A stretch of DNA of 40,134 nt from UHGV virus genome UHGV-0384302. One strand, given 5' to 3'. This stretch comes from a virus. Below are positions 1-40,134 of this stretch, piece after piece. Positions within the stretch are counted from its first letter, which is position 1; the number at the start of each line of letters is the position of its first letter. Below the pieces are notes generated by a model. The model had not been told where the DNA came from and ran no database searches. It saw nothing but the letters and a program-made list of their open reading frames with translations. The position numbers were made by a program, and so were the translations under genes.

Positions 1-18
1 AAAACCGCATCCCTCCTC

Positions 19-552: not shown

Positions 553-612
553 GAAATTTTTCATTATATGCCGTCCAGAGATTGGAGGAGAAAATTATTA
601 GCGTAGTATAAA

Positions 613-1062: not shown

Positions 1063-1069
1063 AAAAATC

Positions 1070-1888: not shown

Positions 1889-1894
1889 GTCTTG

Positions 1895-1922
1895 ATATTA
1901 TGCGATTATTGCAAATTGTCAA
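1895..1922 (-). promoter_or_regulatory. Putative sigma70-type promoter giving a leaderless repressor mRNA
   Basis: On the minus strand: TTGACA (1922..1917), a 16-nt spacer, TAATAT (1900..1895), then ATG of the repressor 6 nt downstream (1888). The geometry resembles lambda PRM-type leaderless cI transcripts. Confidence 0.3.
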
Positions 1923-2044
1923 CACATAAATAAGACAACAGTTTGACGCTTCCGCAGAATCATCTTGACCACTATGTGCGGAAAGCGCAAATTGACCCCA
2001 TGCGGACAAAGCCATCACAGACCAGATTTCCCCGAAGCATCCTG

Positions 2045-2371
2045 CTATCCTCGGTATGGCATGGCAGTATGCAGATGCAACGTAGCGTCAAGCCATTCTT
2101 CCGTCGTCAACCCCCGTCTTGCCGCCTCAATCTGGATAAGCCGGTAACGCTCGTTGGAGACCCTGATATGGACGTCTGTTTCCCTGTATACTTTGGCGTA
2201 GTGGCTATCAATAAGGTTGTCCAGCAGCCGTTGCTTGTCAGCGGGGATGGGAACCGTAGACAGCCACTTGTCTATCATGCCCTTTTTGACAGCACAGCGA
2301 TGCGCCAGTTCTTCCCGAGTCATGCGGGTGTCTTTCAGAAATACCCTGATTTTAGCCTTGAGGTCATCCAT
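2045..2371 (-). CDS. Small DNA-binding regulator (N-terminal HTH paralogous to the repressor, C-terminal RHH-like segment). The ORF track starts at 2392; the start is moved to the Met that aligns with the two paralogues.
   Basis: MDDLKAKIRVFLKDTRMTREELAHRCAVKKGMIDKWLS aligns with the N-terminal domains of the 1070..1888 and 2551..2931 genes. C-terminus IRVSNERYRLIQIEAARRGLTTEEWL is ribbon-helix-helix-like. Confidence 0.5.
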   Translation of the reverse strand: MDDLKAKIRVFLKDTRMTREELAHRCAVKKGMIDKWLSTVPIPADKQRLLDNLIDSHYAKVYRETDVHIRVSNERYRLIQIEAARRGLTTEEWLDATLHLHTAMPYRG

Positions 2372-6189: not shown

Positions 6190-6576
6190 ATGGATTATAT
6201 TAAACAAGTTGTGTTACTTGCCGAAACGGTAGGAATAACTGAAGAAGAATTAGATGCTATTGTTTCTCATTTTCTTATAGACTCTTCTTCCCAACTAACA
6301 CAAAAATCTGCTGAGGTTATATATAAAAATCCGGATCCATATTTTAACTGGGTTTTGTATGGACTCCGTTCACGAGAACCTTCGTGTTCATGGGATCATG
6401 CAATACAATTTTTGGACAAACTAAGTGCAGGAATAATTGTCGAGGTGGTTCGATGTTCTGAATGTGTTTACGGACGAAGACAATCTTCCGATAAAATGTT
6501 TAGAGCATGTTCTTTAATCGACAGATGGGAAAGACCAAATCACTTCTGCGCTAAAGGAAAAATTGAAGATAAATAA
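6190..6576 (+). CDS. AT-rich moron: small Cys/His-rich protein (possible zinc ribbon)
   Basis: 128-aa ORF in a visibly AT-rich segment (about 6180-6600) inside the high-GC early operon. Contains C-x2-C...H...C spacing: SWDHAIQF...RCSECVYG...RACSLIDRWERPNHFC. Confidence 0.45.
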   Translation: MDYIKQVVLLAETVGITEEELDAIVSHFLIDSSSQLTQKSAEVIYKNPDPYFNWVLYGLRSREPSCSWDHAIQFLDKLSAGIIVEVVRCSECVYGRRQSSDKMFRACSLIDRWERPNHFCAKGKIEDK

Positions 6577-9073: not shown

Positions 9074-9565
9074 ATGAAAGAATTGACGGAGAAACAGAAG
9101 ACATTTGCCCGCGGCGTGTTTGAAGGATTGAGCCAGCGGGAAGCTTACAAGAAAGCCTACGATTGCAACACGAAAAAAGACAAGACCGTGGATGCTCTGG
9201 CAAGCCGCTTGCTAAGTAATGTTAAGGTGAAGGAGTACTTGGAAGAGCTGAACAAAGAGGTGGAAAGCCCGCTTATCCTGACCAAACAACAGCGGATGAT
9301 CTGGCTTTCCCGCGTGGTTACAACACCGCTTCATGAGGTAGATGACGATTCCGATTTGTGCCAAGAGCATTCTGTAACGACAGGAGAGAATAGCTCAACG
9401 GAGAGAATCAAGATGCCCTCCAAGCTGGGCGCCATTGCCGAGCTCAACAAGATGACCGGAGCCTATGCACCGGAGAAAGTGGAGACCAAAGTTGAGCATT
9501 CTTTCAGCTCGCTTCTCAAGGGGCTTCCTGCTGCTCCTTTGGTTCCACCCCCGGCGGAGTCATAG
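9074..9565 (+). CDS. terS: Terminase small subunit (Terminase_2/P27-like). The track start of 9017 is trimmed to the ATG after the upstream stop.
   Basis: MKELTEKQKTFARGVFEGLSQREAYKKAYDCNTK...ALASRLLSNVKVKEYLEEL...KMPSKLGAIAELNKMTGAYAPEK matches the conserved LT.KQ..F...Y / A...AGY / ASRLL / KL.aLe.L.K..G.y layout of small terminase subunits. Confidence 0.6.
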   Translation: MKELTEKQKTFARGVFEGLSQREAYKKAYDCNTKKDKTVDALASRLLSNVKVKEYLEELNKEVESPLILTKQQRMIWLSRVVTTPLHEVDDDSDLCQEHSVTTGENSSTERIKMPSKLGAIAELNKMTGAYAPEKVETKVEHSFSSLLKGLPAAPLVPPPAES

Positions 9566-10715
9566 CTTCCGCCAGCTTCTCAAGGGCTGCCCGTCGCTGC
9601 TCGTCATCTGGACGGATGTAGAGCTGGTGAACCGCTTCGGAGTCATGGCCCACTACTTCACGGGCAAGGGCCGCGTCCACGCCGGCGGCATGCAGTAGGG
9701 TTGCTGCCGTAGCCCGTAGGCAGTGGAACGTTTTTGGAGAGACAGAACGGGCGCGGGCTCCTTTGATGGATTCCAGCTTGGTGACAATACCTGCGTATTC
9801 CAGTTCCTTCCGGAATTGCTGGGAGACACCACCGGCTCCATTCCGGCTGTACTTATTTGCGATAACAGGGTGCACATATCCTTCTGTGGGACATAAAGAC
9901 GCGAGGTGCTGGCGGAGAGGCGCCACGATGGGGATTCGCATAGGGCGCCCCGTCTTGGCTGTTTTGAGGGCAATGATGCCCTGTTTCATATCAATCTGAT
10001 CCCAAGTCAGCATTGCCACGTCTCCAAGCCGCTGGCCGCCCATGTAGATACAGCAGATGACCATGCTGCGCCATTCAGGCGGGAGGGTCTGCACCATTCT
10101 ATGAACCTCTTCCACTGAAAAGGCTTCCTTGTCCACGTCTTCAATAGCGTTGGAGTCAGGAATACTTACCCGGAAACATGGGTTCTTGTCGATGATTTCA
10201 CTATCCAGGGCCGCCATGAAGGCTGGTGATAGTGTAGTCATGTATTTTCGCACGGTGCTACGTCTTACCGATTTCAGTTGTGCATTGATGAAGTCTTTGA
10301 TGTCCGACCTTTTGACCGCCGTAATAGGAAGATCAGCCCGGCGCCCCATATGTTCCAGAAAGAGCTTGATGGCAGTTTTGGAGTTGATGGTCGTCCCTCT
10401 TGTTACCTGTCCTTCCCTCGCTTCAATGTAGTTGTTCAGGTAGTCCCGGACGCTGGGTATTTCTGTTTGGTTTTCTCCGGCCAGACTGGCGATAGCAGCC
10501 TTGACTTTGGCAGCATGCGTTCCTTCCTTGTCTGCAGCTTCGTACCCGTCCGCAACAACCTGGGCGCGGTAGCGAGCTTGAGAAGGGGTTTCCTTTATTC
10601 CATTGATCACAGCCCCTCGAATTGGCACCTTCGTCGACACAAGCCTTTTCCTGTCGCCACTACGCCAGGAGGCGTACCAATACTTCGACGAGTCTCTTTT
10701 GAATAGGGATGCCAT
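9516..10715 (-). CDS. int: Tyrosine recombinase / phage integrase. The track ORF begins with TTG at 10739; ATG at 10715 is chosen.
   Basis: N-terminus MASLFKRDSSKYWYASW (typical Int N-terminus). C-terminal catalytic box HCLRATAATLLHAAGVDAALAREVVGHDSEAVHQLYIR (H-x-x-R ... H ... Y) and RLGDVAMLTWDQID (box I Arg). Its 3' end overlaps convergent terS by about 50 nt. Confidence 0.9.
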   Translation of the reverse strand: MASLFKRDSSKYWYASWRSGDRKRLVSTKVPIRGAVINGIKETPSQARYRAQVVADGYEAADKEGTHAAKVKAAIASLAGENQTEIPSVRDYLNNYIEAREGQVTRGTTINSKTAIKLFLEHMGRRADLPITAVKRSDIKDFINAQLKSVRRSTVRKYMTTLSPAFMAALDSEIIDKNPCFRVSIPDSNAIEDVDKEAFSVEEVHRMVQTLPPEWRSMVICCIYMGGQRLGDVAMLTWDQIDMKQGIIALKTAKTGRPMRIPIVAPLRQHLASLCPTEGYVHPVIANKYSRNGAGGVSQQFRKELEYAGIVTKLESIKGARARSVSPKTFHCLRATAATLLHAAGVDAALAREVVGHDSEAVHQLYIRPDDEQRRAALEKLAEAMTPPGVEPKEQQEAP

Positions 10716-10721
10716 GATGAA

Positions 10722-10964
10722 GTGCAAGACAAACTGCAAGACGTTTATATTGCTTATATATGATTATTGCAACACTAAATGTCTCAAAACATATTGGAAA
10801 TACAGGTATTTGGTGTTTCATAGGCATTAAGTACATAGTGCACGATGCACTAACATTTTCATATCACAAGTTACTGTTTATCAGTGATTGAAACTTTTTC
10901 TTTCTTGAAACTGCAAGACAGACTGCAAGACATGAAAACGGCTTTTAAAGGCATTGTCTTGCAG
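10722..10964. repeat. Five copies of a 9-bp motif (A/C/G)TGCAAGAC flanking an AT-rich core upstream of int; candidate Int arm-type / attP region
   Basis: gtgcaagac(10722), ctgcaagac(10734), ctgcaagac(10911), ctgcaagac(10923) as two tandem pairs with 3-nt spacers, plus the inverted copy gtcttgcag(10956). They bracket an AT-rich tract of about 170 bp immediately upstream of the int start. Confidence 0.5.
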
Positions 10965-23763: not shown

Positions 23764-24357
23764 ATGCGTTCCAGTAAAGAACTTGCGGAGCTTTTGTTTT
23801 CCGAATTTGCCAAAGCTGAAAAGGCAGTCAAGGATTACGAGCATTTAACAGCGGAGCTTCCAGTTCCTTCCGTGAATGAATTGCGGTATGCGGGATGCCA
23901 TGCCGTACAAGCGATCAAGCGTGGAATTGATGAAAGCAATGAATGTCAGGAGTTGCTTGATCGAGCCATACGGCATTCCAAAAGAGCTTATTACGATGTC
24001 TTAGAGTACGATGTCATGTTGATGACTAAGAAGGTCGAAGCGTATCAGAGGTTCTATGAGGGCTATGAACGTTTAGCAGCTTCCATTATTCCTCATTATT
24101 GTGACCATATTGCTAAATTAAATGCTTTAGGAGAAATACTCGGAAGTGCTCATGAACTGGATAAAGAGTCCCCAGATTATGTGAAGAGCTGTCAGGAGCA
24201 TATTCAAGTCATGCGTAGTTTTATCAACGATTTTTTGGCCGCCCAAGAACCTCTTTTTTCAGCGATTAAGCATGATCAAAAAGTTATGCGCCTTACTTGG
24301 ATTTTATGGGTATTAGGTCTCGTGATTAGCTATATCCTTGGCCGCTTTTCAGGTTAA
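23764..24357 (+). CDS. C-terminally membrane-anchored protein of unknown function in an AT-rich moron (candidate exclusion/defence cargo)
   Basis: 197 aa. Helical soluble domain with Cys/His residues (CHAVQ...NECQ...HYCDH...CQEH), then a single terminal TM helix MRLTWILWVLGLVISYILGRFSG. Local GC is well below the flanks. Followed by a strong terminator. Confidence 0.5.
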   Translation: MRSSKELAELLFSEFAKAEKAVKDYEHLTAELPVPSVNELRYAGCHAVQAIKRGIDESNECQELLDRAIRHSKRAYYDVLEYDVMLMTKKVEAYQRFYEGYERLAASIIPHYCDHIAKLNALGEILGSAHELDKESPDYVKSCQEHIQVMRSFINDFLAAQEPLFSAIKHDQKVMRLTWILWVLGLVISYILGRFSG

Positions 24358-27170: not shown

Positions 27171-29708
27171 ATGCCTGAACAACCCATGTACAGCGGCGCC
27201 CGCACCCAGCTTGGAGACGGCGCTTCCCCCTTTGTCATCCCCAATATTGGAATTGACGCTTCACAGCACGCTATCCAGCGCGGCACCGTGACTCTGGATG
27301 AAACTGTGAAGCAGTATTTCAAGATTCAGGACTTTGGAGAGGAGCAACGCCTTGAGTCCGAGGTAAGGGGATTGCAGAGTAAGTTCGACGTGGAGTTCCA
27401 GCGGCGGGCATCCCTGGCTCCCGGCTCTTCCTCGCAGGCTTTATATGATTCCGACGGCACCTTGCGTGAAAGCGTGCTGCAGGACTTGTCCGATGAGTAC
27501 GCGGGAAAGATTGGAGAGCTGCGGGGCGGCTTTGTGCTGCCGGAGAGCCGCATGAAGTCCGATGCCATGCGCCAGCGAGTAGGTGATAGTTTTCTGAACA
27601 GCGCATACCAGAAAGCCGCCCTGCTGGGGATTCAGCGCACGCGGGAACACTTCCAGAACAACTATGACCTCGCCATTCGTAACGGAGACTACTCCGGGGC
27701 CGGGTACGCCATCACGGACGCACGTGACAACGGCGTCATCACCGCAGAAAAAGCGGACATCATGCTCCTTGACCTTCGGGACACTGCTCTCATGGCCCGC
27801 GCCCAAAAGCAAAGCGAAGAAGACCCCGTCGCCTTCTGGAATGAACTGGACGACGACGGCAGCCCTTACGCCGTTCTCCCCTCCTCTAAGCGCATGCAGC
27901 TCCAACGCCTCGCTTCTCTCTCCATGCAGGGATTCAGCCGTTCCTTCGTCAAATCCGTGGAAACAGGCAACGCCAAGGCGGAAAAAATCCCCGGATCCAA
28001 AACCTCAACAGCATCCACAGGCAGCGCGAAAAAAGAAAAGGAAATCTACAACCCGGCTCCCTCCAACATCACCCGCAATCTTCATGCCCTCTGGCGCAAA
28101 TACAACGGAGACTTCAAGGAAGGGCAAGGAAAAATAGACGCCATGCCCTTCCTTGCGGAACAGGGTCGAGCCATGATCACCTCGCCCAATGACGAAACGG
28201 AGGCGGAAATGGTCATCGCCCTCTACAAGCAATTCGGGCAGGGGGAAGACTACGCTAAAGCCATGGTCAAGCAATGGCAGGAAGACCTCGCCCGACCGAA
28301 GGGTCTTGACCCTAAAGTCACCTTATCCCATGCAGCCCAGGTGGGCTACTTCACCAGGGCGGAAGACGCGGCCATCCTTGCTCTTGAACAGGAAAAAGCG
28401 CAGAAACAGGAAGACGATGAATGGACGCCGGAAGATGAAGCCCGGCTCAAGGCCGCCAAAGACCGGAGAAAAGCCGCTGCGGAAAATGCCCAATCCATCC
28501 TCCTCGCCAATCTGGACATCTGGAAAAACGACCAGCAATACAACGGCGGAAAAGAAAAAAAGGAACTCACGGAACTCGAAATTGCCAACCGCCTGTGGGA
28601 CACCATCGCCAACTACACCCCAGGCAACAGGGATCAGGTTCAGCAAGACAGCTACCGACAACAGGAAGCAGTCAACATCACAGCGGCCAGTGACAATTAC
28701 GTTCGGAAGCAGGCCGCAGCCCAAAGCCGCAACCTTGACCTGAAAGCGGAACTGTCCGTTACCAACCGCCTCAATGAAGAAGAACGGAAAGCCGCAGAAA
28801 AAATGATCGCGGACATCAGGCGCAGGGAAGAAGAAGCCTACCGCCGCACGCAGCCCGTGGACTCCATCGTGCCCGTCAGCCGGAACAAAGACCTCCCCGC
28901 CCAATGGGGGGACGACGGACAGGAAGCCGTTCTCTACGTTCCGGAAGGCTGGTACGCGGAAGGAATCACCGTGGGCGTCACCACCCCCGGCCGCCGCTAC
29001 GCGGAAGCGAAAATCGTCTCCAAACCGGACTGCACCTCTCCCACCATGTCTAAAGCCCTTCGCCGCCAGCTTGGCACCATGAACATCAACTACGACCAAA
29101 TTACCGTCACCGCATCCGGCACCAAAGCCAACACTGCCGCCGGAAACACCGCTGCCCTCATCATCGGCAATGAAGCCCGCCGTGACAAACAGGGCAATCT
29201 TTCCATCTACAGACTCCCAGCCGGAGACGGCGGAGGAACGCATGAAATCGCCGGAATCAACAACGGCAGCCACCCGGCGGAATACGCCAAACTGGAAACC
29301 CTCGTCAAAGCGGGCAAACACGCGGAGGCGGAACAGGAAGCCAAACGGTACATCATGCAATATACCCAGCCCGTCGGAAACATCCTTCAAACCGCAGGCG
29401 TCACTTCCTCCGGCATAGACTACTTCCTCCGGGACATGTACTTCAACGGCGGCGAATATGGGGCCGTCCGCGTCATTCATCGCGCCCTCGGAGTGGAAGA
29501 CTCCAAAAAATTCAATGCGGACACCGTGGAAGCCGTAAAAAACTACCTCAAGACCCACACGGAACAGCAGCTCTTGGAACGCCTCAAAAACGCACGGGAA
29601 CGCCTCTACAAATCCATCGCCGCCAACAACCCGGACAAACGGCAATTCCTCTCCGGCTGGCTCAACCGGAACAACCGCGTCTACGGGCAGGCCGCGGAGA
29701 TGGCTTAA
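27171..29708 (+). CDS. Internal virion (ejection) protein with C-terminal GH108-like N-acetylmuramidase plus PG_binding_3 domain (T7 gp15/gp16 class)
   Basis: 845 aa, long charged helical regions. The C-terminal ~170 aa (...DGGGTHEIAGIN...YFLRDMYFNGGEYGAVRVIHRALGVEDSKKFNADTVEAV...RQFLSGWLNRNNRV) match the GH108/DUF847 core (DPGG.T..GI ... NGG...A.R.LQ.A.GV.DG..G..T) and the F..GW.NR ending of the PG-binding domain. Confidence 0.6.
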   Translation: MPEQPMYSGARTQLGDGASPFVIPNIGIDASQHAIQRGTVTLDETVKQYFKIQDFGEEQRLESEVRGLQSKFDVEFQRRASLAPGSSSQALYDSDGTLRESVLQDLSDEYAGKIGELRGGFVLPESRMKSDAMRQRVGDSFLNSAYQKAALLGIQRTREHFQNNYDLAIRNGDYSGAGYAITDARDNGVITAEKADIMLLDLRDTALMARAQKQSEEDPVAFWNELDDDGSPYAVLPSSKRMQLQRLASLSMQGFSRSFVKSVETGNAKAEKIPGSKTSTASTGSAKKEKEIYNPAPSNITRNLHALWRKYNGDFKEGQGKIDAMPFLAEQGRAMITSPNDETEAEMVIALYKQFGQGEDYAKAMVKQWQEDLARPKGLDPKVTLSHAAQVGYFTRAEDAAILALEQEKAQKQEDDEWTPEDEARLKAAKDRRKAAAENAQSILLANLDIWKNDQQYNGGKEKKELTELEIANRLWDTIANYTPGNRDQVQQDSYRQQEAVNITAASDNYVRKQAAAQSRNLDLKAELSVTNRLNEEERKAAEKMIADIRRREEEAYRRTQPVDSIVPVSRNKDLPAQWGDDGQEAVLYVPEGWYAEGITVGVTTPGRRYAEAKIVSKPDCTSPTMSKALRRQLGTMNINYDQITVTASGTKANTAAGNTAALIIGNEARRDKQGNLSIYRLPAGDGGGTHEIAGINNGSHPAEYAKLETLVKAGKHAEAEQEAKRYIMQYTQPVGNILQTAGVTSSGIDYFLRDMYFNGGEYGAVRVIHRALGVEDSKKFNADTVEAVKNYLKTHTEQQLLERLKNARERLYKSIAANNPDKRQFLSGWLNRNNRVYGQAAEMA

Positions 29709-29729: not shown

Positions 29730-32700
29730 ATGGACTACTTGCAGGAAAACACCTTCTTCATCCCGTCCCCCGCGCCCGCGCCTGAACAACTCGCCTCCCC
29801 GGACTATGAGCAGCAGCGGAAACAGGACATGGACTACCTCTCCAACTACCTCCTCTCCGGCCAGTACCCGGAACACCGCGCCTTGGCGGAACAGGCCCAC
29901 GGCCATGACCCCTATGCCCATGCGCCGGAACAAGAACGCAAATGCTTCGTTGGGCGTAAAGCCTGCGGCGTCCTCCTCGGCAACGACCAGGTCCCGGACA
30001 TGTACTTCCGCCAGCAAAACCTCCCCATCCCGGATGGGGCGGACACGCGGGAAAAAATGTACATGGCCGTCTATGACCACCTTGACGGCGTCGTCAAGCA
30101 GGCCAAGCAGAAACAGGTGGAAGAACAAAAAGCCCTGGAACAATACGGCCAGCAGTTATTGGGGCGCATTGACCGCGCCTGCAAAGGCAGCGGAGAACAA
30201 TGGACGCCCAAAGACATAGACATGATGGGCCGCGCCGGAATCACACCGGACATCATCAACCGCGTCCGCGCCGCCTATGCCAAACTCCCCGTCGGCAGTT
30301 TCATCCTCGATGATGCCGATGCGGCAAACGTCATGACGGCAGCCGGACTCAACAAAGACGACCTCACGCCGGATGACAAAAAAGTGGAAGACATCCTCAT
30401 GAGCCTGTGGGGCAAGGCCATCTATGACAACTACGGAGCCAACATCGACAGACAATATGAAAACCCCGTCGCTCAATATGCCTACGAAAGCATCAAGCCC
30501 ATCCACAACCTCTACTACTCCACGCTCTCCGGCGCAATGGGCGTCTTGGAAAACCTCCGCAATGTAGACGCGGACGTCCCCTCCTTCATGACGCCGGGGG
30601 ACCGCATGGCATACGACCATATCCCCTTTGACAACAAAAACCCCTTCCTCTCGGCGGAAGAAATGCGGCATGACAAGGGACTCCTCCGCACCATCGACTT
30701 CCGGGCAAAAATGAAAAACGTCCGCAAGGCGGCCCAGCAGGCATACACCGAAGGGAGGCAAACCTGGGGAATCAACAAATTCGCCGTCACCCTTGGCGAC
30801 ATGGTCGGTCAATCCGTCCCCAACGCCATACCCTACTTTGGCGTGTACAGCCTCCTCAAAGGATCCGGCACGCAACGCTATGAAGAAGGCGTTGCCCTCG
30901 GACTATCCCGTGAAGAAAACGTCAAACGTGCATCCCTCTTCGGGGCGGCGGACACCCTGGAAGAAAAAATCGGCATGGGCGTCCTTGGCAAAGTCCCCGT
31001 GCTGGGGCGTCTCCTGAACGCCGGACTCAACAAAACGGGCCTCCCGTACAACTCCCTCCGCGCCAAATACCTCGCCAGTGAAACCGCCCAAATATGGGGT
31101 AACACCGCGGCGGGCGTGCTGGAAGAAGGCGTTGCGGAACCCATCGTCGGGGGCACTACCCGCGCTCTCATGAGCAACTTCCTTGACGATGATCGGGGCA
31201 AAACCTCCCTCTCCGCCATCCCCGGCGCCATCCTCCAAAACTTTGAAGGCTACCAGGGCCTCGCCCTTGCCTTCTACTCCCGCGGCTTCGTCAAACTCGC
31301 GGAACCCCAAATCCGGGAAAACGTCAAGCACTTCGCGGAATCCCTGGACGGATTCACCGCTCTCGGCGGTTCGGAATCCGGCTACCTTCGCGCCTTGGAA
31401 ATCAAAGACACCGACGCCCGCAACGACTTCATCGCCGAACACCTTAAAACCGAATGGGCAAACAACCCGGAACAGGCAGCCCGCCGGGCGGAACAGGGAA
31501 ACGCCGCCCTCCTCGGTACACAGGAAATCGCCCAGCTCCGCGAACTCGAATCCTTCCGCGCCTTGCAGGAGCGCGGCGTCATTCCCCGCTTTGAGCCAGC
31601 GCAGGAAACGGGCAAATACCGTGTCTACCTTAACGCGGAAACAGCGGAAACCCGCCGGAAGACCCAACCTTCGGAGGAAGGAATTTCCGCGGAGAACCCC
31701 GTGGCGGAACAAACGCGGCAGGGGCAGGACTACGCCCTCATGACGGAAGACCAGCTCAACACCCTCCTCACCCTCTCCATTGGAGAACGTGAGCGGGACA
31801 CCATCCTGTGGGCGCAAAACCTCCTCGCGGCGGAAAACGTCGTGGACTACCTCGAACAACAGGGATGGAAAACGGAAAACATCGGCCAGACGGAAACCAC
31901 AGCCACCCTCCGCACGCTCGCCCGGCAGGCTACCGCCACCGTCCGCCTGCTGGAAACCTCCGGCATCACCCGGCAGGAAGCCCTTGCCTCGGTCAACCCG
32001 GACATCTCGGAACATGCCAGCCTCCAAAGCATCATCACCGCCTACTCCGGGTCCAAGGGCAGGGCGGCCACCGCCCGCCGCCGCGGGGAACAAACCTCCT
32101 TTGCCTCGAATGCCTATGTCATCCGCCAGCAGGATCCGGTCAACGGAGGCTTCCAGCAAATACTGCGCTTCTCCCGTGGAGAAGCCACGGTGGAAAACCT
32201 GTGGGAAGAAACCATGGAACAGGCCGCCATCAACTGGTGCGCCCAGGAAAACCTCTCCCCGTCCACCTTCGGCAGCCAGCTACAGGACATGCAGCGCGCC
32301 GTCAACCAGCTCTACGGAGAAGAAGGGGGCGTTCAATTCATCGGCCTTGACGTCGTTCCCACCTCCGGCGACGTCGTGGAAGCCCTCTCCCTCATCGGAC
32401 GTTCCCGCCTCATGCACGACGTGGTAGCTGGCACCAGCAGCCTCCCCTCGTGGATCCAGAAACTTGTCCGCTTCGTCTCCTCCTTCCTCGAACAATTCCG
32501 TGCCAAGGCGGAACTCGGCCACGCCATCGCCAAACTGGAATCATCCGGCCAGCTCACCCCGGAAATGCAAAACCTCATCAACGCCATGACCGGGGCCGTG
32601 GACTCCATCCACGCGCGGGACATCCGGCAGGAAGCGGACATCGTCACCGCCGTGGAAAGCTCCATCGCGGAACATGAAGCCGCCTTCACCCGTGCGGGCA

Positions 32701-35700
32701 CCTCCCAAACGAAAACGCTGGAAGACATCCGGGCGGAACTTGACGACGTTGCCGCCCAGCAGGAACAGGCGGAACCTCCAACCACGGAAACCCCGCCGGA
32801 TCCCGCCCAGCCGGAACCGGACGCCAATGCCTTCATCGCCCCTGACGGCACAGTCCTTGCCCCCGGACAGGACAGCCGGAAAGACGCTGCCTCTGATAGC
32901 CCCTTCATCGGCGGCAACTACATCCAGATCGGGGAAGCCCGCCTCGGAGCCGTCCCCACGGCCTCCATCCTCCATGCGGAAGACCTCGCTCAAACCAAAC
33001 GCAATGCGGACGCCAGCGGCCTCACCAAGCCCCTCACTGGAAAATTCAAAAGGGAAACCGCCCCCGTCTACCTCCTCCATCGCAACAACGGAGAACTTCA
33101 TATCTTCTCCGGCAGGCATAAACTCGCCCTAGCCAGAGAAAACGGCATCGACCGTGTCGCCGCCTACGTCTATGAAGAAGACGCTGCCCACACCCCGGAA
33201 TGGGCGCGGTATGAAGACATCCGCCTCAACATCCTCGATGAACAGGCCACCATCACGGAAGTAGCCCTCTACGCCCGCCATCTCAAGGACGCCAGCCCGG
33301 AAGCGGACGTCGTTGCAGACATGACTCACGAGGGACTGGTACGCATCCACCCCCAGCCGTGGCGGCGTACCCCCACCCAAATAGGCGCATTCATCGGGGC
33401 CAACGCCAGCCCTGACTTGCTCGACCGCCTCAAAAACCCGGACAACTCCCTCATGGATGAAAAGGCGGCCTACACCATCTGCCAGCTCACCACGGACGCG
33501 ACCGTCCAGCAATGGGCCGGGGGACAAATCCAGCAGGGGCAGTCCATTGACGACATCGTCGCAGGCATCCAGCAGCGGGACGCCGCCGTCTCCGGCGGTC
33601 AAATCGAATACGACATGTTCGGCAACGCCATCTTCAACAACGCCGAATTTGACCACGTCACCCGCTATGTCAACGCCTGCAAGGCGGAAATCTCCCGCGT
33701 GGAAGCCCTCCTCAAAAGCAAAAACCGCATCGCCAAAGACCAGCCGCTTGCCCGCCAGCTCGGCCTCTCCATTGACCAGCACACGGACGTTGCTTCCATC
33801 CGCAAGCAAATCGCGTCCCTCAAAATCGCCTACAACAACATCGGCGTCCACCCGGAAATCACCGCAGCGGGCCGCCTCTGGAAAGAAGGGGAACCCGTTC
33901 ACCCGCTCAAGGACATCCCGGAACTCCGTCTTGAAAACGTAGAGAAAACGGACACGGAACCCAGGCCCTTCGATGACGGGGAAATGCTCTTCTCCGCCAG
34001 CCTCACCCCTATCCGGAAATCCGCCGCAAACGTCCAGCCGGAAGGCAGCCATGCCCCAAGAATCAACGTATTTTGGCATGGTGTGGAGGAAAAAGACTAC
34101 CGCTCTCTTCCTGTGGAAGAACAAGAACGCCTTGCCAGCCGTGGCCTCGATGAACTCTACCCCATGGCCGAGGCCGTCATGCAGGACTTTGACACCATCG
34201 TCCGCGGCATCGGGGAACGCCTCGGACTGCGCGTCATGATGCGGAAAACTCTCAAAGGCCGGGCACGTGCCTTACAAAAAACCGTGGGAGACAATTACGG
34301 CGATGCCGGAAAACTCCTCGATGTTTTCGGGGGCACCCTCATCATGCCGGACAGTGCGGACTTCTCCCAAGTCATTTCAGAAGTCAGGGAATCTGGCATG
34401 ACTATCGCCCGCATTAAAAATGGCTACAAGGCCCACGATCCCTACGGTTATGCGGACATCAAGCTCAACGTCCAAATGCCCAACGGATTCATCGGAGAAA
34501 TCATCCTCATTGAAGAACACATGATGCGGATGAAAGAAGGCCCCGGTCATAAAATTTACGAAGTGGGCCGCAACCTTCAAAACGAACTCAACCAGAACAA
34601 AGACAACCCGGACTACGGGGAAAAACGCCGTCAGCTCGTCACTGGTTATGTAGAAACCCTGCAACAACTCTCCCACGCCTACTACGGTAATCAGGGGCGC
34701 GAACCAATCAGGGAAGCGGAACAGGAAGCACGGGAAGCTTATTCAAAATTGCATGGCTGGGCATTCTCCAATGCCTCTTCCAGTGAGGAAAGCGGAATCG
34801 TTCCATTAGCTGGATTGGGGGAAGGAATGTACTTTGCTTCAACCAATCTGGCAGACCCATCTTTGGCAACCTTCACCTGGTATGTTTTCCCGGACTTGTC
34901 GGAAGCCCAGGAAGCGTCTCCGTCTCCTCTAGTCCAGAACTCGACCAGTTCCACATCTGATGCTCTCAATAACATATCCACGGATAATGTAGCATCGTCC
35001 CTGAACAATGTCAAATCAGCCCTTGAACAAGCGGGGGAACGCGCATCCTCCCCATCCCCTGAACAGGACGGCCCCGGCGTCAGCTTCTCCCTTGCTCAAG
35101 CCTCCGTCATTTCAAGGCTCATTCTTGCTCCTCGCGCCAACGAAGCCAAAGCCCGTTCCCTCATGCGTGGCATCGACGAAGCCATGAACCGCTGGAACAT
35201 TGCTGCATCCGTGGACATCACCCATGACAGCGCGGCCCGCACCTTCGGGGAACTCAACTCCATCCTCGCGGAAATCCAGCGAGTCCTGCCGGACAACTAC
35301 AAAATCAACATGCGCCCCTACCTCAACTTCGGAGCAGCCTACGCCCGCATGCTGGAAACCGGACGCATCCGCTCCTATGGCAAACTCTCCCCGGAACAAA
35401 AAAACACCCTTGCGGCGGAACTTCAAACCCTCATGGACTCGCCGGACGTTCTCACCGCCATCCGCGGGGAAGTGGTTGATCAAATCTCCATTCGTCAGGA
35501 AACAACAGGAAGGGGAGGCCCGGAATACGCGCAGGCATACCGCACCCAACAGGAAGACATCGTCCGCCAGCTCGCCGAAGGAAGGCTCAACACCCTCCTT
35601 ACCTCCATCATGACCGACGTTCGCGGGCAGCTCGAACAATACCTCAAGGACGAAAGCGTTGCCAAGGTACTTGACCGCATCGCCCGTCTCATGCCCAAAA

Positions 35701-38432
35701 AGAAAGACAACGGAAAATACGGTAAAGGCTCCCTCCCGGCGGACGCCTACCGCACCCTCGGCCAATACCTTGCCATGCTCGATGCGGATGCCTCCGCCGT
35801 AGAAGCGGAAACAGCCAGACTGGAAGCACTTATCCGGGACGCCTCCCTCAACCAGACGGAAGCGGCGGAAGGGGAAACCATATCCATCCCCTACGAATAT
35901 GCGGGAAGAAAAGAAAACCTCACCCTTGACCAGTTGGAAAGCAAACTCGCGGACTGGCAAACCTTCGGAAACTTGGCGGACATGAACCTCGATGAAACCC
36001 GCGCCGCCATGGAAGCCATCATGACCTACATCCAGACCAACCGCACGGCCTGGGTGCAGAAAAACCAGCAGGAAGCATGGCAGAACGAAAAACTTGCCTA
36101 CGACATCTCCGGCTCCATCCGGCAGCATGTCACCGTAGATGAACAAGCCGTCCGCGACGCCAACGAAAACGCGGACAGCTCCCGCGTGGAATGGGCGCGT
36201 GCCTGGTTCTCCGGCCTGCAATCCTTCTCTCAAATGCTCGAAAGCCTCTCCGCCATCGACGGCATGAAGGAACTCTCCCAATACGGCATCTCGGAAATAG
36301 CCAAAGCCAACGTCTCTCTCAACACGCGGGAAAACAACCATGCCGCCGCCTTTGCGCAAATCATTCGGGAATCTGCCGGACTGCGGACGAAACGCGACAT
36401 AGAACGATGGATTCTTGACGCCAAGCTCACCCGCGACACTGGGGCCGTCACCGCCCCTGTCAGGGAAAAAACCGTCACCCTCGACATCCGGACCGCACAG
36501 GAATACATCGACCTCATCGAAGCCGACGACAGGGAAGGCTTTGAAGCCAAGCGGCAGCACATCATGGAAACCGCCCGCCGCCAGGGCATCCGCCCCGAAC
36601 GCCTCGGCCTCATCTCGGAAATGGACATCCCCGCTCTCATGAATGAACTCGCCGCCCATCCCAGGGCCGGGAAAATCACCATCACCAGCCGCATCCTTGA
36701 CAAAAAGGGAACAGCCCGCCCGCTGCGCCTCTCCAAAGCGCAGGCCATGTACCAAATCCTCCTCTACGAACAGGACAGGTACAAGCCCAACTTCGAGCGG
36801 CATGGCTACACTGGGCAAACCATGCAGGCCCTCTACCGCTACGTCGGACAGGACGGCCTCGCCGTTGCCTACGGCCTCCGCGACTACATCAACCAATGCG
36901 GCATAGAACTCGCAGACGTCTTTGAAAAACTCACCGGAGTCCCGTTCCCCAAAGAAGAAAAATACTTCCGCGCCAAATTCAACCACCACGAAGGCGACGC
37001 CAAAACCGCCGTCATCGGAGAAGGCAACAACATCATGGGGCATAAATACTCCATGCTCATCACCCGTAAAAAACACAACCTCGGCCTTGACCTCTCCGCG
37101 GACGTCTTCACCGTCGCCAACGCCTCCCTGGCGGAAACGGACAACTACATCTGCACCAAACACATCACATCCAAATTCCGCGGCGTCCTCTCCCATGGTT
37201 ACGCGGCGGACGCCCTCAAGGTCAAAATGGGAGCGCAGCGATACCGCCAGCTCGTCACGTGGCTTGACCTCATCGACGGGGCGGGCACCCTCGAAGCAGC
37301 CCAGCTCATGGCCCACTCCAAATTCGTAGGCCGCATGCAGGGAGCCAAGGCAAACGCCCTCCTTGCCTACAACCTCCTCACCTGCATCAAGCAGACCTCC
37401 GCCATCCTCCACCCGCTCGCCTCTGGTAAAATCGGCCTCGGAGAACTCATGAAAGAATACTCCCTCATGCTCTCCGGCAACAGCCACTTCACCTTCGCGG
37501 ACATGATGCGGACAGACGCCTTCCAATCCCGTTTCAGAAAAGAACCCGTCATCCGGGAAATCCTCAATTACGGCGCAGACCAGCACTTCGGCTATGGTAA
37601 AAGAATCGCCATGTCCGGAATGGTCCCTCTGGAAAAAATGGACGTATGGAGCAACGCCGTTTCCCATACCGCCCTTGCAAACGCCGTCATCCGCAAACTG
37701 GAAAAGGAAAACGCCGCCCGCATTCGCAATGGGGAAGAGCCAATGACCACCGCAGACATGGAGCAAATCGCCCTCGACGAAGTCCGCCAATCCCTCGAAC
37801 TCGCAGCCCAGCCCACGCGCACCGCGCAGAAATCGCAGCTCCAGGCCATGGGCGGCACCTTCGTCCGCCTCTGGACATTCATGGGCAGCGAAGCCATCAA
37901 CAAATTCGGCAACCTCGTCACCTTCGCCCAAAAAGGCCAGTGGGGTAAGCTCGCTGCCGCATGGGCCAGCCTCTCCCTGTGGGAACAAACCATGGTAACG
38001 CTCTGGATGCTCCTCATGAACCCGCCGGGAGATAAAGACAAGGACAAGGAAAAATGGTGGAAAACGCAGGCTGTGGCTCTCCCCTCCGCCATGCTCGGAT
38101 CCGTTCCTGTCGTGGGAGCAACCATTCAGACAGCCCTTCAAACCTTCGGCCTTGCTCCCTACTACGGCAACTACGGATCCCAAATCATCCCCGCCGGAAC
38201 AGCCGTCTCCAAAATCAAAAAGGCCACGAAGAAAAAAGCCACTTGGCAGGACACCTTCAACGCCTCCCTCGCCGTCCTCCAATGCCTCGCCATCGGCGGC
38301 GGCGTCTTCTCGGACTCCCGCTCCAAGCCAGTTGCGGAAACCGCCTCCGCCCTCATTGGACTATCCGCCGCGGCCAACATCCCAAAAGTCGCCGTTAAGG
38401 CAACCGAAGAACCCAAAAAGAAAAGGCGGTAA
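29730..38432 (+). CDS. Giant (2900 aa) polyvalent internal virion / ejection protein with ParB/Srx-like domain, RelA/SpoT-like nucleotidyltransferase-like domain and C-terminal hydrophobic helices
   Basis: Single uninterrupted 8.7-kb ORF following the GH108-bearing protein. ParB-like block ...ETAPVYLLHRNNGELHIFSGRHKLALARENGIDRVAAYVYEE (about 32900-33190). RSH-like block RVMMRKTLKGRARALQK...DVFGGTLIMPDSADFSQVI...NGYKAHDPYGYADIKLNVQMPNGFIGEIILIEEHMMRM (about 34200-34570). C-terminal hydrophobic segments (37960-38320). Confidence 0.65.
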   Translation: MDYLQENTFFIPSPAPAPEQLASPDYEQQRKQDMDYLSNYLLSGQYPEHRALAEQAHGHDPYAHAPEQERKCFVGRKACGVLLGNDQVPDMYFRQQNLPIPDGADTREKMYMAVYDHLDGVVKQAKQKQVEEQKALEQYGQQLLGRIDRACKGSGEQWTPKDIDMMGRAGITPDIINRVRAAYAKLPVGSFILDDADAANVMTAAGLNKDDLTPDDKKVEDILMSLWGKAIYDNYGANIDRQYENPVAQYAYESIKPIHNLYYSTLSGAMGVLENLRNVDADVPSFMTPGDRMAYDHIPFDNKNPFLSAEEMRHDKGLLRTIDFRAKMKNVRKAAQQAYTEGRQTWGINKFAVTLGDMVGQSVPNAIPYFGVYSLLKGSGTQRYEEGVALGLSREENVKRASLFGAADTLEEKIGMGVLGKVPVLGRLLNAGLNKTGLPYNSLRAKYLASETAQIWGNTAAGVLEEGVAEPIVGGTTRALMSNFLDDDRGKTSLSAIPGAILQNFEGYQGLALAFYSRGFVKLAEPQIRENVKHFAESLDGFTALGGSESGYLRALEIKDTDARNDFIAEHLKTEWANNPEQAARRAEQGNAALLGTQEIAQLRELESFRALQERGVIPRFEPAQETGKYRVYLNAETAETRRKTQPSEEGISAENPVAEQTRQGQDYALMTEDQLNTLLTLSIGERERDTILWAQNLLAAENVVDYLEQQGWKTENIGQTETTATLRTLARQATATVRLLETSGITRQEALASVNPDISEHASLQSIITAYSGSKGRAATARRRGEQTSFASNAYVIRQQDPVNGGFQQILRFSRGEATVENLWEETMEQAAINWCAQENLSPSTFGSQLQDMQRAVNQLYGEEGGVQFIGLDVVPTSGDVVEALSLIGRSRLMHDVVAGTSSLPSWIQKLVRFVSSFLEQFRAKAELGHAIAKLESSGQLTPEMQNLINAMTGAVDSIHARDIRQEADIVTAVESSIAEHEAAFTRAGTSQTKTLEDIRAELDDVAAQQEQAEPPTTETPPDPAQPEPDANAFIAPDGTVLAPGQDSRKDAASDSPFIGGNYIQIGEARLGAVPTASILHAEDLAQTKRNADASGLTKPLTGKFKRETAPVYLLHRNNGELHIFSGRHKLALARENGIDRVAAYVYEEDAAHTPEWARYEDIRLNILDEQATITEVALYARHLKDASPEADVVADMTHEGLVRIHPQPWRRTPTQIGAFIGANASPDLLDRLKNPDNSLMDEKAAYTICQLTTDATVQQWAGGQIQQGQSIDDIVAGIQQRDAAVSGGQIEYDMFGNAIFNNAEFDHVTRYVNACKAEISRVEALLKSKNRIAKDQPLARQLGLSIDQHTDVASIRKQIASLKIAYNNIGVHPEITAAGRLWKEGEPVHPLKDIPELRLENVEKTDTEPRPFDDGEMLFSASLTPIRKSAANVQPEGSHAPRINVFWHGVEEKDYRSLPVEEQERLASRGLDELYPMAEAVMQDFDTIVRGIGERLGLRVMMRKTLKGRARALQKTVGDNYGDAGKLLDVFGGTLIMPDSADFSQVISEVRESGMTIARIKNGYKAHDPYGYADIKLNVQMPNGFIGEIILIEEHMMRMKEGPGHKIYEVGRNLQNELNQNKDNPDYGEKRRQLVTGYVETLQQLSHAYYGNQGREPIREAEQEAREAYSKLHGWAFSNASSSEESGIVPLAGLGEGMYFASTNLADPSLATFTWYVFPDLSEAQEASPSPLVQNSTSSTSDALNNISTDNVASSLNNVKSALEQAGERASSPSPEQDGPGVSFSLAQASVISRLILAPRANEAKARSLMRGIDEAMNRWNIAASVDITHDSAARTFGELNSILAEIQRVLPDNYKINMRPYLNFGAAYARMLETGRIRSYGKLSPEQKNTLAAELQTLMDSPDVLTAIRGEVVDQISIRQETTGRGGPEYAQAYRTQQEDIVRQLAEGRLNTLLTSIMTDVRGQLEQYLKDESVAKVLDRIARLMPKKKDNGKYGKGSLPADAYRTLGQYLAMLDADASAVEAETARLEALIRDASLNQTEAAEGETISIPYEYAGRKENLTLDQLESKLADWQTFGNLADMNLDETRAAMEAIMTYIQTNRTAWVQKNQQEAWQNEKLAYDISGSIRQHVTVDEQAVRDANENADSSRVEWARAWFSGLQSFSQMLESLSAIDGMKELSQYGISEIAKANVSLNTRENNHAAAFAQIIRESAGLRTKRDIERWILDAKLTRDTGAVTAPVREKTVTLDIRTAQEYIDLIEADDREGFEAKRQHIMETARRQGIRPERLGLISEMDIPALMNELAAHPRAGKITITSRILDKKGTARPLRLSKAQAMYQILLYEQDRYKPNFERHGYTGQTMQALYRYVGQDGLAVAYGLRDYINQCGIELADVFEKLTGVPFPKEEKYFRAKFNHHEGDAKTAVIGEGNNIMGHKYSMLITRKKHNLGLDLSADVFTVANASLAETDNYICTKHITSKFRGVLSHGYAADALKVKMGAQRYRQLVTWLDLIDGAGTLEAAQLMAHSKFVGRMQGAKANALLAYNLLTCIKQTSAILHPLASGKIGLGELMKEYSLMLSGNSHFTFADMMRTDAFQSRFRKEPVIREILNYGADQHFGYGKRIAMSGMVPLEKMDVWSNAVSHTALANAVIRKLEKENAARIRNGEEPMTTADMEQIALDEVRQSLELAAQPTRTAQKSQLQAMGGTFVRLWTFMGSEAINKFGNLVTFAQKGQWGKLAAAWASLSLWEQTMVTLWMLLMNPPGDKDKDKEKWWKTQAVALPSAMLGSVPVVGATIQTALQTFGLAPYYGNYGSQIIPAGTAVSKIKKATKKKATWQDTFNASLAVLQCLAIGGGVFSDSRSKPVAETASALIGLSAAANIPKVAVKATEEPKKKRR

Positions 38433-38578
38433 AAAGTATCGCCGCGGCTCCGGAGAACCGCGACGACCTTTGGACACTTGCCTGAAACGAGGCAAGGCGT
38501 TCAGCATATCACCTCCTTTCACGTTCTCGGAAGAACTTCCTTGTGTCATACAAAAAAGAAACAGAAGAAAAACCTTGC

Positions 38579-38682: not shown

Positions 38683-39024
38683 ATGAACACCGAAATCAAA
38701 AATGAAAACGTCGTGGCTCTGCTTCATGCGGTAGCCGTTTCCTCCGGTCTTGTCAAAGAAGGCTTGCCATGGTGCAAGCGCGTAAAAGTCGCTCCCGGTT
38801 CGATCTCCTTCAACATGTTCGGGCCTACGGAAGACGCCAATGCTTGGCAGGTCTCCTTTCATCTCTCCTCCCTTCGTTCCAGAAAGAAGGTAGATGAACT
38901 CCTGCACAACCTCGCCATTGCCTCCATGGACTTCAAACTCTGCGACGGCTACGAACTCCGCTTCTGCAAGGCGGACAAATACGTCAGCATCATTATCCCG
39001 GACAATGAAAAATATGCAGCCTGA
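38683..39024 (+). CDS. Hypothetical protein
   Basis: 113-aa ORF with a good start context (aacaATGaac). No motif recognised. Confidence 0.45.
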   Translation: MNTEIKNENVVALLHAVAVSSGLVKEGLPWCKRVKVAPGSISFNMFGPTEDANAWQVSFHLSSLRSRKKVDELLHNLAIASMDFKLCDGYELRFCKADKYVSIIIPDNEKYAA

Positions 39025-39994
39025 ACCGAACGCCAAACAAGGAAACAAAGCCATGAACGAATACATCAACGACATTTCCCAGCAAACCGCGGAACGCGCC
39101 TTCAACGGAACCAGCTTCTCCCCTGACAGACGCGGGGAAAGCCTGCGGCGCGAATACGCAAATGACCTCGCCTCCTTCCAATCCGTCTTGGAAAAATACA
39201 TGAAGGGGGAAGACGAAGACAAAATCAACGAAGAATTCGAGCGTTTCCGCTCCGGCCTCAAGCAAAGATACCTTGCCTACTGCTCTTCACACTCCCGCTG
39301 CATGTCCGCCTTCATCGTCGGCCCGGCCCGATTTCCATCGGCACGCATGCAAAAATACTCCGGCTGGGCAGACAACAAAATGAGGGAAATCAGCTCCTTC
39401 ATCGAACGGGCGGAAAAATCCGTCAAAAGGAGATACTTCAAAGACCCCAACGGCCCCATCAAATCCAGTGACCCGGATGCCGTGGAGCGGCTGGAAGCCA
39501 AGCTTTCTGCTTGCCGCAAAACGCAGGAAACCATGAAAGCCGCAAACGCCGTCATCCGCAAAGCCAAGGGAGACAAGGATAAGGCTATGGCCGGACTCAT
39601 TGAAATGGGATTAAGTGAACAGACCGCCGCCAAAATCCTCACGCCGGACTACTGCGGCAGAATCGGCTTTTCGACTTACACTCTCGCTGGCAACAACGCG
39701 GAAATAAGAAGACTCGAAGGCCGCCTCCGTAAAATCAAAACCGCCAAAGAAACCACCCCGGAAAAAATAGAAACGCAAACCGGAATCATCATTGAAAAAT
39801 GCCCGGAAGAGAATAGAATAAGGCTCTACTTCCCGGACAAGCCGGACGAAACTGTCAGGGGCAGCCTCAAGGCAAACGGATTCCGCTGGTCGCCTCGCCT
39901 CAAGGCATGGCAGTCCTACATCAACTGGAAGACGGAACACTACGTCCGGAAAGAAATTGTCGCATCACAAACTGGTGCGCTCATTGAAACATGA
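39014..39994 (+). CDS. Hypothetical protein (start ambiguous: 39005, 39014 or 39053; the track's 38894 start overlaps the upstream gene)
   Basis: About 320 aa, charged/helical (MNEYINDISQQTAERAFNGTSFSPDRRGESLRREYANDLASFQSVLEKYMKGEDEDKINEEFERFRSGLKQRY...). No confident family assignment. Confidence 0.45.
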   Translation: MQPEPNAKQGNKAMNEYINDISQQTAERAFNGTSFSPDRRGESLRREYANDLASFQSVLEKYMKGEDEDKINEEFERFRSGLKQRYLAYCSSHSRCMSAFIVGPARFPSARMQKYSGWADNKMREISSFIERAEKSVKRRYFKDPNGPIKSSDPDAVERLEAKLSACRKTQETMKAANAVIRKAKGDKDKAMAGLIEMGLSEQTAAKILTPDYCGRIGFSTYTLAGNNAEIRRLEGRLRKIKTAKETTPEKIETQTGIIIEKCPEENRIRLYFPDKPDETVRGSLKANGFRWSPRLKAWQSYINWKTEHYVRKEIVASQTGALIET

Positions 39995-40134
39995 CCACTC
40001 CTGAACAATTCATTGACTGGGTAAAACAAACCCTCAACATCAGGAAAACCCCCGCCGTTGAAAAAGCGGTTGGGGTGCTTGGCGTTACGCGCCTCACCAT
40101 CTTCCGCTGGCTCAACGGAACCATGCCCCCCAGC
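39991..40134 (+). CDS. HTH DNA-binding protein, 3'-truncated by the window end
   Basis: MTTPEQFIDWVKQTLNIRKTPAVEKAVGVLGVTRLTIFRWLNG is a classic HTH (AlpA/Cro-like) arrangement. ATG overlaps the previous stop (ATGA). Confidence 0.4.
   Translation, partial: MTTPEQFIDWVKQTLNIRKTPAVEKAVGVLGVTRLTIFRWLNGTMPPS

Follow-up and report, generated by a model that had tools for sequence, protein, structure and literature searches.

The 40,134-nucleotide stretch of DNA analysed here (UHGV virus genome UHGV-0384302, hereafter the window) belongs to a temperate podophage of Akkermansia muciniphila and carries on its plus strand a giant open reading frame (ORF) at 29730..38432. The product of 2,900 amino acids (aa) is a putative internal virion (ejection) or polyvalent protein, in which conserved N- and C-terminal parts enclose a variable middle with effector cassettes; remote homologues of 3,300-3,900 aa have the N- and C-terminal parts in common with it. 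Within the middle, at approximately aa 1455-1654 (34092..34691, plus strand), lies a synthetase domain of the RelA/SpoT homologue (RSH) family, belonging to the Tas1/Apk-RelV branch of toxic or exported small alarmone synthetases. A RelA/SpoT-like segment inside an ejection protein had been proposed, from the letters of the sequence alone, in an original prediction for this locus. The peptides quoted there are in frame in the 2,900-aa ORF (aa 1501-1517, 1531-1552 and 1564-1601, corresponding to nt 34230-34532), and the presence of an RSH-fold nucleotidyltransferase domain in a giant virion-type protein has been borne out by sequence, profile and predicted structure. The coordinates first given for it, 34060-34600, cover the catalytic core but cut off the C-terminal helices, the domain ending near nt 34691.

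The assignment to the RSH family begins with direct sequence matches. Comparison of aa 1413-1688 with all PDB sequences by phmmer identified the Pseudomonas aeruginosa protein Tas1 (6OX6) with an E value of 2.7e-8 over aa 1469-1605 (the Tas1-alignable core, 34134..34544, plus strand), and Tas1 was the sole match in the PDB when the full 2,900-aa protein was used as the query. These direct matches show that the resemblance is real and far beyond chance. A HMMER search of 1.84 billion representative proteins found 1,314 relatives of the domain with E values of up to 1e-3, of which 195 reach 1e-10 or better; many of the relatives sit within proteins of 2,000-4,800 aa. A profile built from 29 relatives matched Tas1 at 2.6e-28, the exported synthetase SaEAS at 3.5e-9 and RelP/YwaC at 1e-7, and also found Rel, RelA and RelQ. 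A word-indexed protein search with the domain gave no match; the exact giant protein and its 67-member ortholog cluster are present in the same collection, so that this result reflects a limit of sensitivity and is no sign of rarity. Nothing was found when a further sequence (P0004) was used as the query against viral contigs.

Structure prediction and superposition had been suggested as a check on the original proposal. The AlphaFold2 model of aa 1455-1654 has a predicted local distance difference test score (pLDDT) of 94.8 and a predicted template modelling score of 0.86, and when it was compared with the PDB by Foldseek the 50 best matches were without exception RSH synthetases (Tas1, RelP, SaEAS, RelQ, Rel, CapRel, RelA and SpoT), with Tas1 in first place (E 3e-8, template modelling score 0.64-0.66). 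The best matches in the viral structure library BFVD are large uncultured-phage proteins named RelA/SpoT, DdrB-like, ART-PolyVal-like or Tas1. None of the outcomes that the prediction had named as speaking against it, among them the lack of any match to a nucleotidyltransferase fold and a model unlike a nucleotidyltransferase, was encountered; sequence, profile and model all match RSH synthetases.

The motif-by-motif mapping onto RSH synthetases that accompanied the proposal holds in alignments to RelP/YwaC and Tas1 (all positions on the plus strand). The syn1 basic helix, K1509-x3-R1513-x3-K1517 (34254..34280), aligns with the RxKxxxSxxxK helix of RelP and is the predicted binding site for the triphosphate of the donor. 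In the syn2 strand, D1531-V-F-G1534-G-T1536 (34320..34337), the positions D1531, G1534 and T1536 correspond to DxxGxR and D1531 is the predicted Mg2+-binding catalytic Asp. The syn3 motif or G-loop, Y1574-A-D1576-I-K1578 (34449..34463), is preceded by G1573, which with Y1574 aligns with GY; a stacking contact with the acceptor base is predicted for Y1574. The syn4 motif, E1590-I-I1592 (34497..34505), aligns with EIQ and has the catalytic Glu, with Ile in place of the Gln of ExQ, and H1607 and Y1610 align with the H..Y motif. Among the 150 closest relatives, the invariant or nearly invariant positions are K1509, R1513, K1517, D1531, G1573, Y1574, D1576, N1585, G1586, E1590, K1602, H1607, Y1610, R1614 and Y1652, and the window protein has every one of them; D1531 is invariant in 151 of 151 sequences. 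The roles of these residues follow the published structure of FaRel2 with APCPP, in which the triphosphate is bound by the basic helix, Mg2+ by the Asp and the donor adenine by Glu and Gln, and the Tyr stacks on the acceptor base.

Several findings weigh against an active enzyme here, and others, given below with the virion context and the hydrolase, against its delivery and its pairing with an antidote. Neither the giant protein nor a 300-aa segment of it matched any Pfam family, RelA_SpoT (PF04607) included, even at an E value of 10. A profile search with PF04607 had been proposed at the outset; while the window sequence itself is unmatched, 12 of the 29 family members match RelA_SpoT on their own, the best at 6e-11. 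No PHROGs or PADLOC model was reached by the window protein or the domain, and NCBIfam gave for the domain segment a weak match below its cutoff (PRK09169.1-1, E 0.0077). At the active site, the residues that contact the donor adenine in FaRel2/RelP (Gln of ExQ and Arg of DxxGxR) are replaced by I1592 and T1536. Both replacements had been pointed out in the original prediction as substituted catalytic positions. The Arg is also missing from the active enzyme Tas1, and the change to Thr is not a defect since it is the norm for the whole Tas1/RelV-like branch; the change from EIQ to EII (Q1592I) is special. The Apk1 study (mBio 2025) gives R330, K353, N370, E382 and Q384 as the residues that bind ATP in Tas1/Apk1, for which the window domain has G1534, R1561, K1578, E1590 and I1592. 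Two of the five are conserved in kind and three are replaced (R330 by G1534, N370 by K1578 and Q384 by I1592), the GxN of Tas1 being DIK in the window domain. With these changes the donor must be bound in a different way, and perhaps less well.

These replacements are shared by other proteins. The combination G1534/K1578/I1592 is conserved and covarying and defines a subclade of 31 among the 150 closest relatives, more than half of it in proteins of at least 1,400 aa. Ile-1592 occurs in 31 of 151 sequences, each of which also has K1578 (31/31), whereas this Lys is present in just eight of the 108 Gln-type sequences. Judging from the secondary structure of the model, positions 1578 and 1592 belong to the two strands of a single beta-hairpin, on which they would be expected to lie opposite one another. 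The members of the subclade are divergent (30-40% identity) and the catalytic residues are retained in 28-31 of the 31, the exceptions being mostly N-terminally truncated sequences. Among close relatives the ratio of nonsynonymous to synonymous substitution rates (dN/dS) in the RSH core is 0.05-0.09, as low as or lower than in the rest of the protein.

A catalytically dead relic, retained as a structural or nucleotide-binding module in a phage whose hydrolase is an unrelated anti-stringent-response gene, would be in keeping with the replacement of R330, N370 and Q384 of Apk1, with the lack of a Pfam match for the window sequence and with the alarmone hydrolases that are common in phages without an RSH domain. 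This explanation appears quite improbable. Throughout the 31 divergent proteins the Asp for Mg2+, the Glu of catalysis, the Tyr of the G-loop, the helix for the triphosphate and the H..Y motif are retained, which would not be expected of a dead enzyme; dN/dS is low, and the change from Gln to Ile is perfectly coupled to a Lys in the predicted partner strand. Because of this retention of invariant residues, the covariation of 1578 with 1592 and the low dN/dS, the site looks like a compensated and conserved alternative nucleotide pocket and not like that of a decaying pseudo-enzyme. From these sequence comparisons we consider it likely that the RSH domain is catalytically active.

The product is not inferable from the sequence, the candidates being (p)ppApp, (p)ppGpp and pyrophosphorylated tRNA. 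Within the family of 1,314 members, the main clade carries the signature DLAR.T / VK.KNRF / GYRD / E.Q.H of the Vibrio RelV/VpEAS-type enzymes, which make (p)ppGpp only. A hidden Markov model (HMM) of the main clade scores the RelV/VpEAS type at 128 bits vs 91 for Tas1, and an HMM of the subclade at 80 vs 67, whereas the window domain alone scores 39 bits with Tas1 and 32 with the RelV/VpEAS type. As relatives of the (p)ppGpp-only type exist, the acceptor (adenosine or guanosine) is not assignable by homology. Two routes to the product were considered and rejected: the closest characterised relatives, because the domain is about equidistant from (p)ppApp-specific Tas1 and (p)ppGpp-specific RelV/VpEAS, and the type of the phage hydrolase, because MESH1/Rel-like enzymes cleave both alarmones. 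To be counted with the unfavourable findings, the syn3 motif DIK differs both from the SxH of the guanosine type and from the GxN found in Apk1, Apk2 and SaEAS. More generally the adenosine-type signatures (syn2 R.T, syn3 GxN and syn4.H/.N) are absent from the window domain, which has GGT, DIK and LI at these places; a published swap of syn motifs in Apk2 failed to switch specificity.

The third of these products would make the domain a translation-targeting toxic small alarmone synthetase (toxSAS), which pyrophosphorylates the 3'-CCA end of tRNA in the manner of FaRel2, PhRel2 and CapRel and yields no free alarmone. Three arginines present near the active site in the main clade are missing from the subclade, which has Gly at 1534 and 1565 and Ala at 1575; the FaRel2 paper associates tRNA substrates, as opposed to nucleotide ones, with a less extensive positive patch around the acceptor, and CapRel is among the fold matches. 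We nevertheless hold a tRNA-modifying enzyme to be improbable, given that the nearest relatives in sequence and structure (Tas1, the RelV/VpEAS type and SaEAS) form nucleotides, that neither N-terminal tRNA-anchoring helices nor a pZFD-type antitoxin domain was identified and that K1563, K1602 and R1614 are still invariant. Small alarmone hydrolases are reportedly able to reverse the tRNA modification too, and for this reason the hydrolase described below does not discriminate between a tRNA-modifying enzyme and one that forms free alarmones.

The giant gene starts 21 nt after a gene for an 845-aa protein (27171..29708, plus strand) which has a C-terminal lysozyme/peptidoglycan-binding domain (PG_binding_3) resembling the endolysin of Akkermansia phage Chantilly and which is probably a virion-associated muralytic protein. 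The locus is surrounded by genes for a T7-type portal, capsid, tail and terminase, and the giant gene is likely to be the last of the late operon. In distant phages the pair is kept, an ORF of ~822 aa being followed by a giant of 3,475-3,908 aa with homologous N- and C-terminal parts, an RSH domain and a ParB-like piece. Membrane-type hydrophobic segments are found in the giant protein at aa ~2745-2890 (37962..38399, plus strand) and nowhere else in it. It is plausible that the giant is an internal virion protein that is ejected; since it resembles no proven ejection protein, we infer this from the gene order, the muralytic neighbour and the C-terminal hydrophobic helices. Among the findings on the contrary side, the giant protein, apart from its ParB-like piece, matched nothing in PHROGs, Pfam or the phage records, known ejection proteins included.

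An enzyme that is active yet is no injected effector has therefore to be weighed. It could act in the producing or lysogenic cell, for instance in the timing of lysis or assembly, or be an abortive or competition toxin that is released on lysis, and it may be unpackaged altogether. The lack of homology to proven ejection proteins fits such a role, the packaging having been deduced from gene order alone, and even for the MuF-Apk2 toxins that phages carry the literature has not settled on a role. We think this unlikely, although worth keeping in mind: the gene ends a late structural operon directly behind a muralytic gene, in an arrangement kept in distant phages, the C-terminal helices are of the membrane type, and the size and cassette architecture match those of polyvalent proteins, which have been proposed to be delivered with DNA.

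The middle of the giant protein contains at least two unrelated effector domains, the RSH domain and a ParB/sulfiredoxin (Srx)-like cassette at aa ~1063-1200 (32916..33329, plus strand) with the motif SGRHK. The latter matches the N-termini of phage DNA methylases in tblastn searches, and when the giant gene was compared with 50,697 phage records by megablast and tblastn this piece alone was matched. The core of its AlphaFold2 model has a pLDDT of 84-90. Of the 44 best PDB matches that Foldseek gave for it, nearly all are ParB/Noc/KorB/PadC or sulfiredoxin, the rest being Atu1540 chains (best E 1.1e-3). One giant protein (P0001) that is 78-88% identical elsewhere is without the piece, which appears as a gap in the alignment, while the distant giants also have it. 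Behind the RSH domain is a linker rich in Ser, Thr, Pro and Asn (34860..35069, plus strand), which is the site of an extra cassette in relatives: four of them (L005, L007, L010 and L030) have ~340 aa (HASPHSF...GWGLYFA) inserted after window aa ~1775 (nt ~35050). On the strength of a weak match to ART-PolyVal (E 0.046) this insertion may be an ADP-ribosyltransferase (ART) effector. In a comparison with a further relative (L008; window 34092..34829) the synonymous divergence (dS) of the RSH core is 0.77, as against 0.015-0.06 in the N- and C-terminal parts of the gene, a contrast which suggests that the effector cassette has been exchanged by recombination between phage lineages. A further finding to be set on the unfavourable side is that no zincin protease motif (HExxH, HExxxH or HxxEH) is present anywhere in the 2,900 aa.

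Directly 3' of the stop codon of the giant gene is a 13-bp GC-rich hairpin (38438..38467), and this is followed by a 250-nt non-coding stretch; together they are the probable boundary between the late operon and a second operon that contains a gene for a small alarmone hydrolase, 1.56 kb downstream of the giant gene. The ATG of the hydrolase gene overlaps the upstream stop codon (ATGA), and the gene is divided by the ends of the window into a 5' part (39991..40134, plus strand) and a 3' part (1..552, plus strand) with an HD_4 domain. Its reading frame is unbroken across the junction (40134 to 1) and the product has 231 aa. When the last 300 nt and the first 300 nt are joined they align collinearly, at 94-98% identity, with ~20 independent contigs, and the window is thus a circularly permuted, complete genome of 40,134 bp. 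The ORF at 19..552 matches HD_4 (PF13328) with an E value of 7.5e-16 (58.7 bits against a cutoff of 27.2) and NCBIfam spoT_relA is matched as well; in the PDB the matches are Lmo0812 (1e-13), human MESH1 (2.8e-13), Rel/SpoT hydrolase domains and the (p)ppApp hydrolase Aph1 (8e-7). The metal-binding and catalytic motifs are intact (H39, H63-D64, E67-D68 and D125/N129), and a 54-aa N-terminal extension gives a weak helix-turn-helix match (HTH_3, below cutoff at E 0.027). The enzyme, in which R29-K30 stand at the place of D24 in Aph1, is of the general MESH1/Rel type and for this reason does not reveal the product of the synthetase. The order of giant, 113-aa ORF, 366-aa primase-like protein and hydrolase is kept in all relatives in which the locus reaches that far.

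Support for a functional link comes from this kept order, from the rarity of such hydrolases, which ~0.5% of phage records carry (260 of 50,697), and from an environmental contig (L038, Ga0315284_10182197), in which, at 533..2207, a 314-aa relative of the RSH domain (~31% identity) is directly followed by an ORF for an HD-type hydrolase. This is an independent synthetase-hydrolase module, and such pairs are an established toxin-immunity arrangement for Apk2/Aph1 and FaRel/ATfaRel. Other results belong with those that count against a synthetase and its antidote. No relative of the RSH domain was seen in the 260 phage records with an alarmone hydrolase, so that the hydrolase may serve another purpose. 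None was found within the flanking DNA examined near the distant giants L021 and L034-L036, and the result for the last three is likewise unfavourable. No protein like the immunity proteins Tis1 or IapK was recognised either: the 113-aa ORF directly downstream of the giant gene (38683..39024, plus strand; 96-100% identity in relatives) and a 149-aa ORF at 613..1062 have no match to Tis1 in the PDB (6ox6_B) or to Pfam, NCBIfam or PADLOC. The slot just downstream of a toxin gene is the usual position of an immunity gene in toxin systems. Immunity proteins diverge fast, and the missing match to Tis1 or IapK therefore does not show that such a protein is absent.

Taken together, the domain would most likely be an active Mg2+-dependent pyrophosphokinase. 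Mg-ATP would be held by the K1509/R1513/K1517 helix and D1531, the acceptor base would be stacked by Y1574, and E1590 would aid the transfer of the beta,gamma-pyrophosphate to the 3'-OH of a purine nucleotide, giving (p)ppApp and/or (p)ppGpp. The enzyme would enter the cell along with the phage DNA, where rapid use of ATP and a raised level of alarmone would arrest host metabolism or defence; the hydrolase encoded in the next operon would then clear the product, or would protect the producing cell or lysogen. What the analysis shows of this account is the homology and fold of the domain, the conservation of its residues and the purifying selection on it, the presence of a hydrolase gene and the host and layout of the genome; that the domain is catalytic, what it makes, that the protein is packaged and injected and that the hydrolase is functionally tied to it are inferred. 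As a whole, with a virion-delivered RSH effector in the giant protein and a hydrolase counterpart in the same phage, we incline towards it, with confidence somewhat better than even. A bolder version, which we regard as rather doubtful, holds that the G1534/K1578/I1592 subclade is a distinct pyrophosphokinase, whose remodelled donor pocket might take a donor or acceptor other than those of the characterised RSH enzymes, and that the injected domain and the helix-turn-helix hydrolase, as immunity of the prophage, form a virion-delivered toxin-immunity pair. Were this so, the pair would mediate superinfection exclusion or kin discrimination among strains of A. muciniphila in the human gut.

One of the closest characterised counterparts is Tas1/Apk1, a (p)ppApp synthetase effector of the P. 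aeruginosa type VI secretion system (T6SS) and the best PDB match by both sequence and fold. Both domains have Thr at the syn2 position that is Arg in other RSH enzymes, both retain the Asp and Glu of catalysis, the GY loop and the C-terminal motif K..GH..YE..R, and each is a toxin domain placed on a delivery module. In Tas1 this domain is C-terminal on a PAAR/T6SS-borne protein with Tis1 encoded adjacently, whereas in the window it is internal to a 2,900-aa phage protein near which no Tis1-like gene was found. RelV/VpEAS enzymes are Sec-exported proteins of ~250 aa that, unlike the window domain, have R, N and Q intact. A second parallel is with the MuF-fused Apk2 toxins of temperate phages, which make (p)ppApp and are countered by IapK/Tis1-like proteins and Aph1 hydrolases. 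Here too an Apk-type synthetase is carried by a phage on a virion-associated module with an HD-type hydrolase in the same phage. In Apk2, however, the carrier is MuF and the domain is C-terminal, whereas in the window the carrier is a giant protein at the gene position of an internal core protein and the domain is internal; and the partner Aph1 has the D24 signature, whereas the window hydrolase has a MESH1/Rel-like R29-K30, sits three genes away in another operon and bears the helix-turn-helix-like extension. Whether MuF-Apk2 toxins are packaged and injected is stated in the literature to be an open question.

Phage polyvalent proteins were defined by Iyer, Burroughs, Anand, de Souza and Aravind (2017; PMC5512222), who listed RelA/SpoT, DdrB-like ParB and ART among the domains peculiar to the phage type and proposed delivery with DNA and an alarmone-mediated shut-down of the host. 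The window giant is like these proteins in being a giant multi-effector phage polypeptide with RelA/SpoT and DdrB-like ParB domains, and ART in relatives, whose cassettes are gained, lost and recombined. It differs from them in that a zincin metallopeptidase (MPTase), their usual hub for self-processing, is absent, in that the cassettes lie between large conserved N- and C-terminal modules, and in that its host phylum is Verrucomicrobiota whereas the hosts given there for polyvalent RelA/SpoT proteins are Spirochaetes and epsilon-Proteobacteria. A resemblance to gp15 and gp16 of T7 consists in the podophage type, the T7-type portal, two large consecutive late genes of which one is directed at peptidoglycan, and C-terminal hydrophobic segments; no sequence similarity to gp15 or gp16 was detected, the muralytic domain is here carried by the 845-aa protein instead of by the largest, and the giant is more than twice the size of gp16. 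A 2025 survey of Apk1/Tas1 homologues comprising 1,369 sequences includes A0A2N8HXA3_9BACT. This protein is an ortholog of the giant (same N-terminus, 83%-identical domain), and no comment on A0A2N8HXA3 was seen in the portion of the survey that was consulted. Both the homology and the concept are thus already in the literature, and the locus falls within the multi-effector (polyvalent) proteins delivered by phages, a class already on record, without representing a new kind of system; what is added here is the A. muciniphila temperate podophage, the place of the domain in a putative ejection protein, the subclade with its G/K/I pocket and the hydrolase partner.

Phage-borne alarmone synthetases such as MuF-Apk2 and the polyvalent RelA/SpoT domains are toxic enzymes, whether predicted or shown to be so, and the locus offers a tractable case for the question whether phages inject them. 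The genome of this temperate phage is complete (40 kb), its host is a gut commensal that can be cultured and is of medical importance, the domain boundaries are clear, a candidate antidote is present in the same genome and there are natural variants with differing cassettes. The finding will be unsurprising to a specialist, yet it provides a good experimental handle, and it gives a testable annotation to database entries such as WP_102746757.1, WP_094135219.1 and QHV66192.1, orthologs of the giant protein which NCBI labels 'hypothetical protein [Akkermansia muciniphila]'.

Orthologs of the giant protein in A. muciniphila sit on chromosomes of up to 2.84 Mb. Near-identical copies of the gene are common in human-gut metagenome contigs, where they occur as phage-length contigs of ~40-41 kb, and more distant copies are found in Akkermansiaceae genomes. 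Besides the genes already described the window encodes, on the minus strand, an integrase (9516..10739), an S24 repressor (1070..1888) and the T7-type portal (PF12236; 12121..13833), as well as capsid and tail proteins, the large and small terminase subunits and an amidase. Three ORFs on the plus strand stand out by their third-position GC content: 613..1062, 6190..6576 and 23764..24357 have values of 0.29, 0.22 and 0.39, respectively, compared with 0.6-0.77 in most genes. These ORFs, to which no function is assigned, are compositionally foreign and moron-like, and the first of them (613..1062) directly follows the hydrolase gene.

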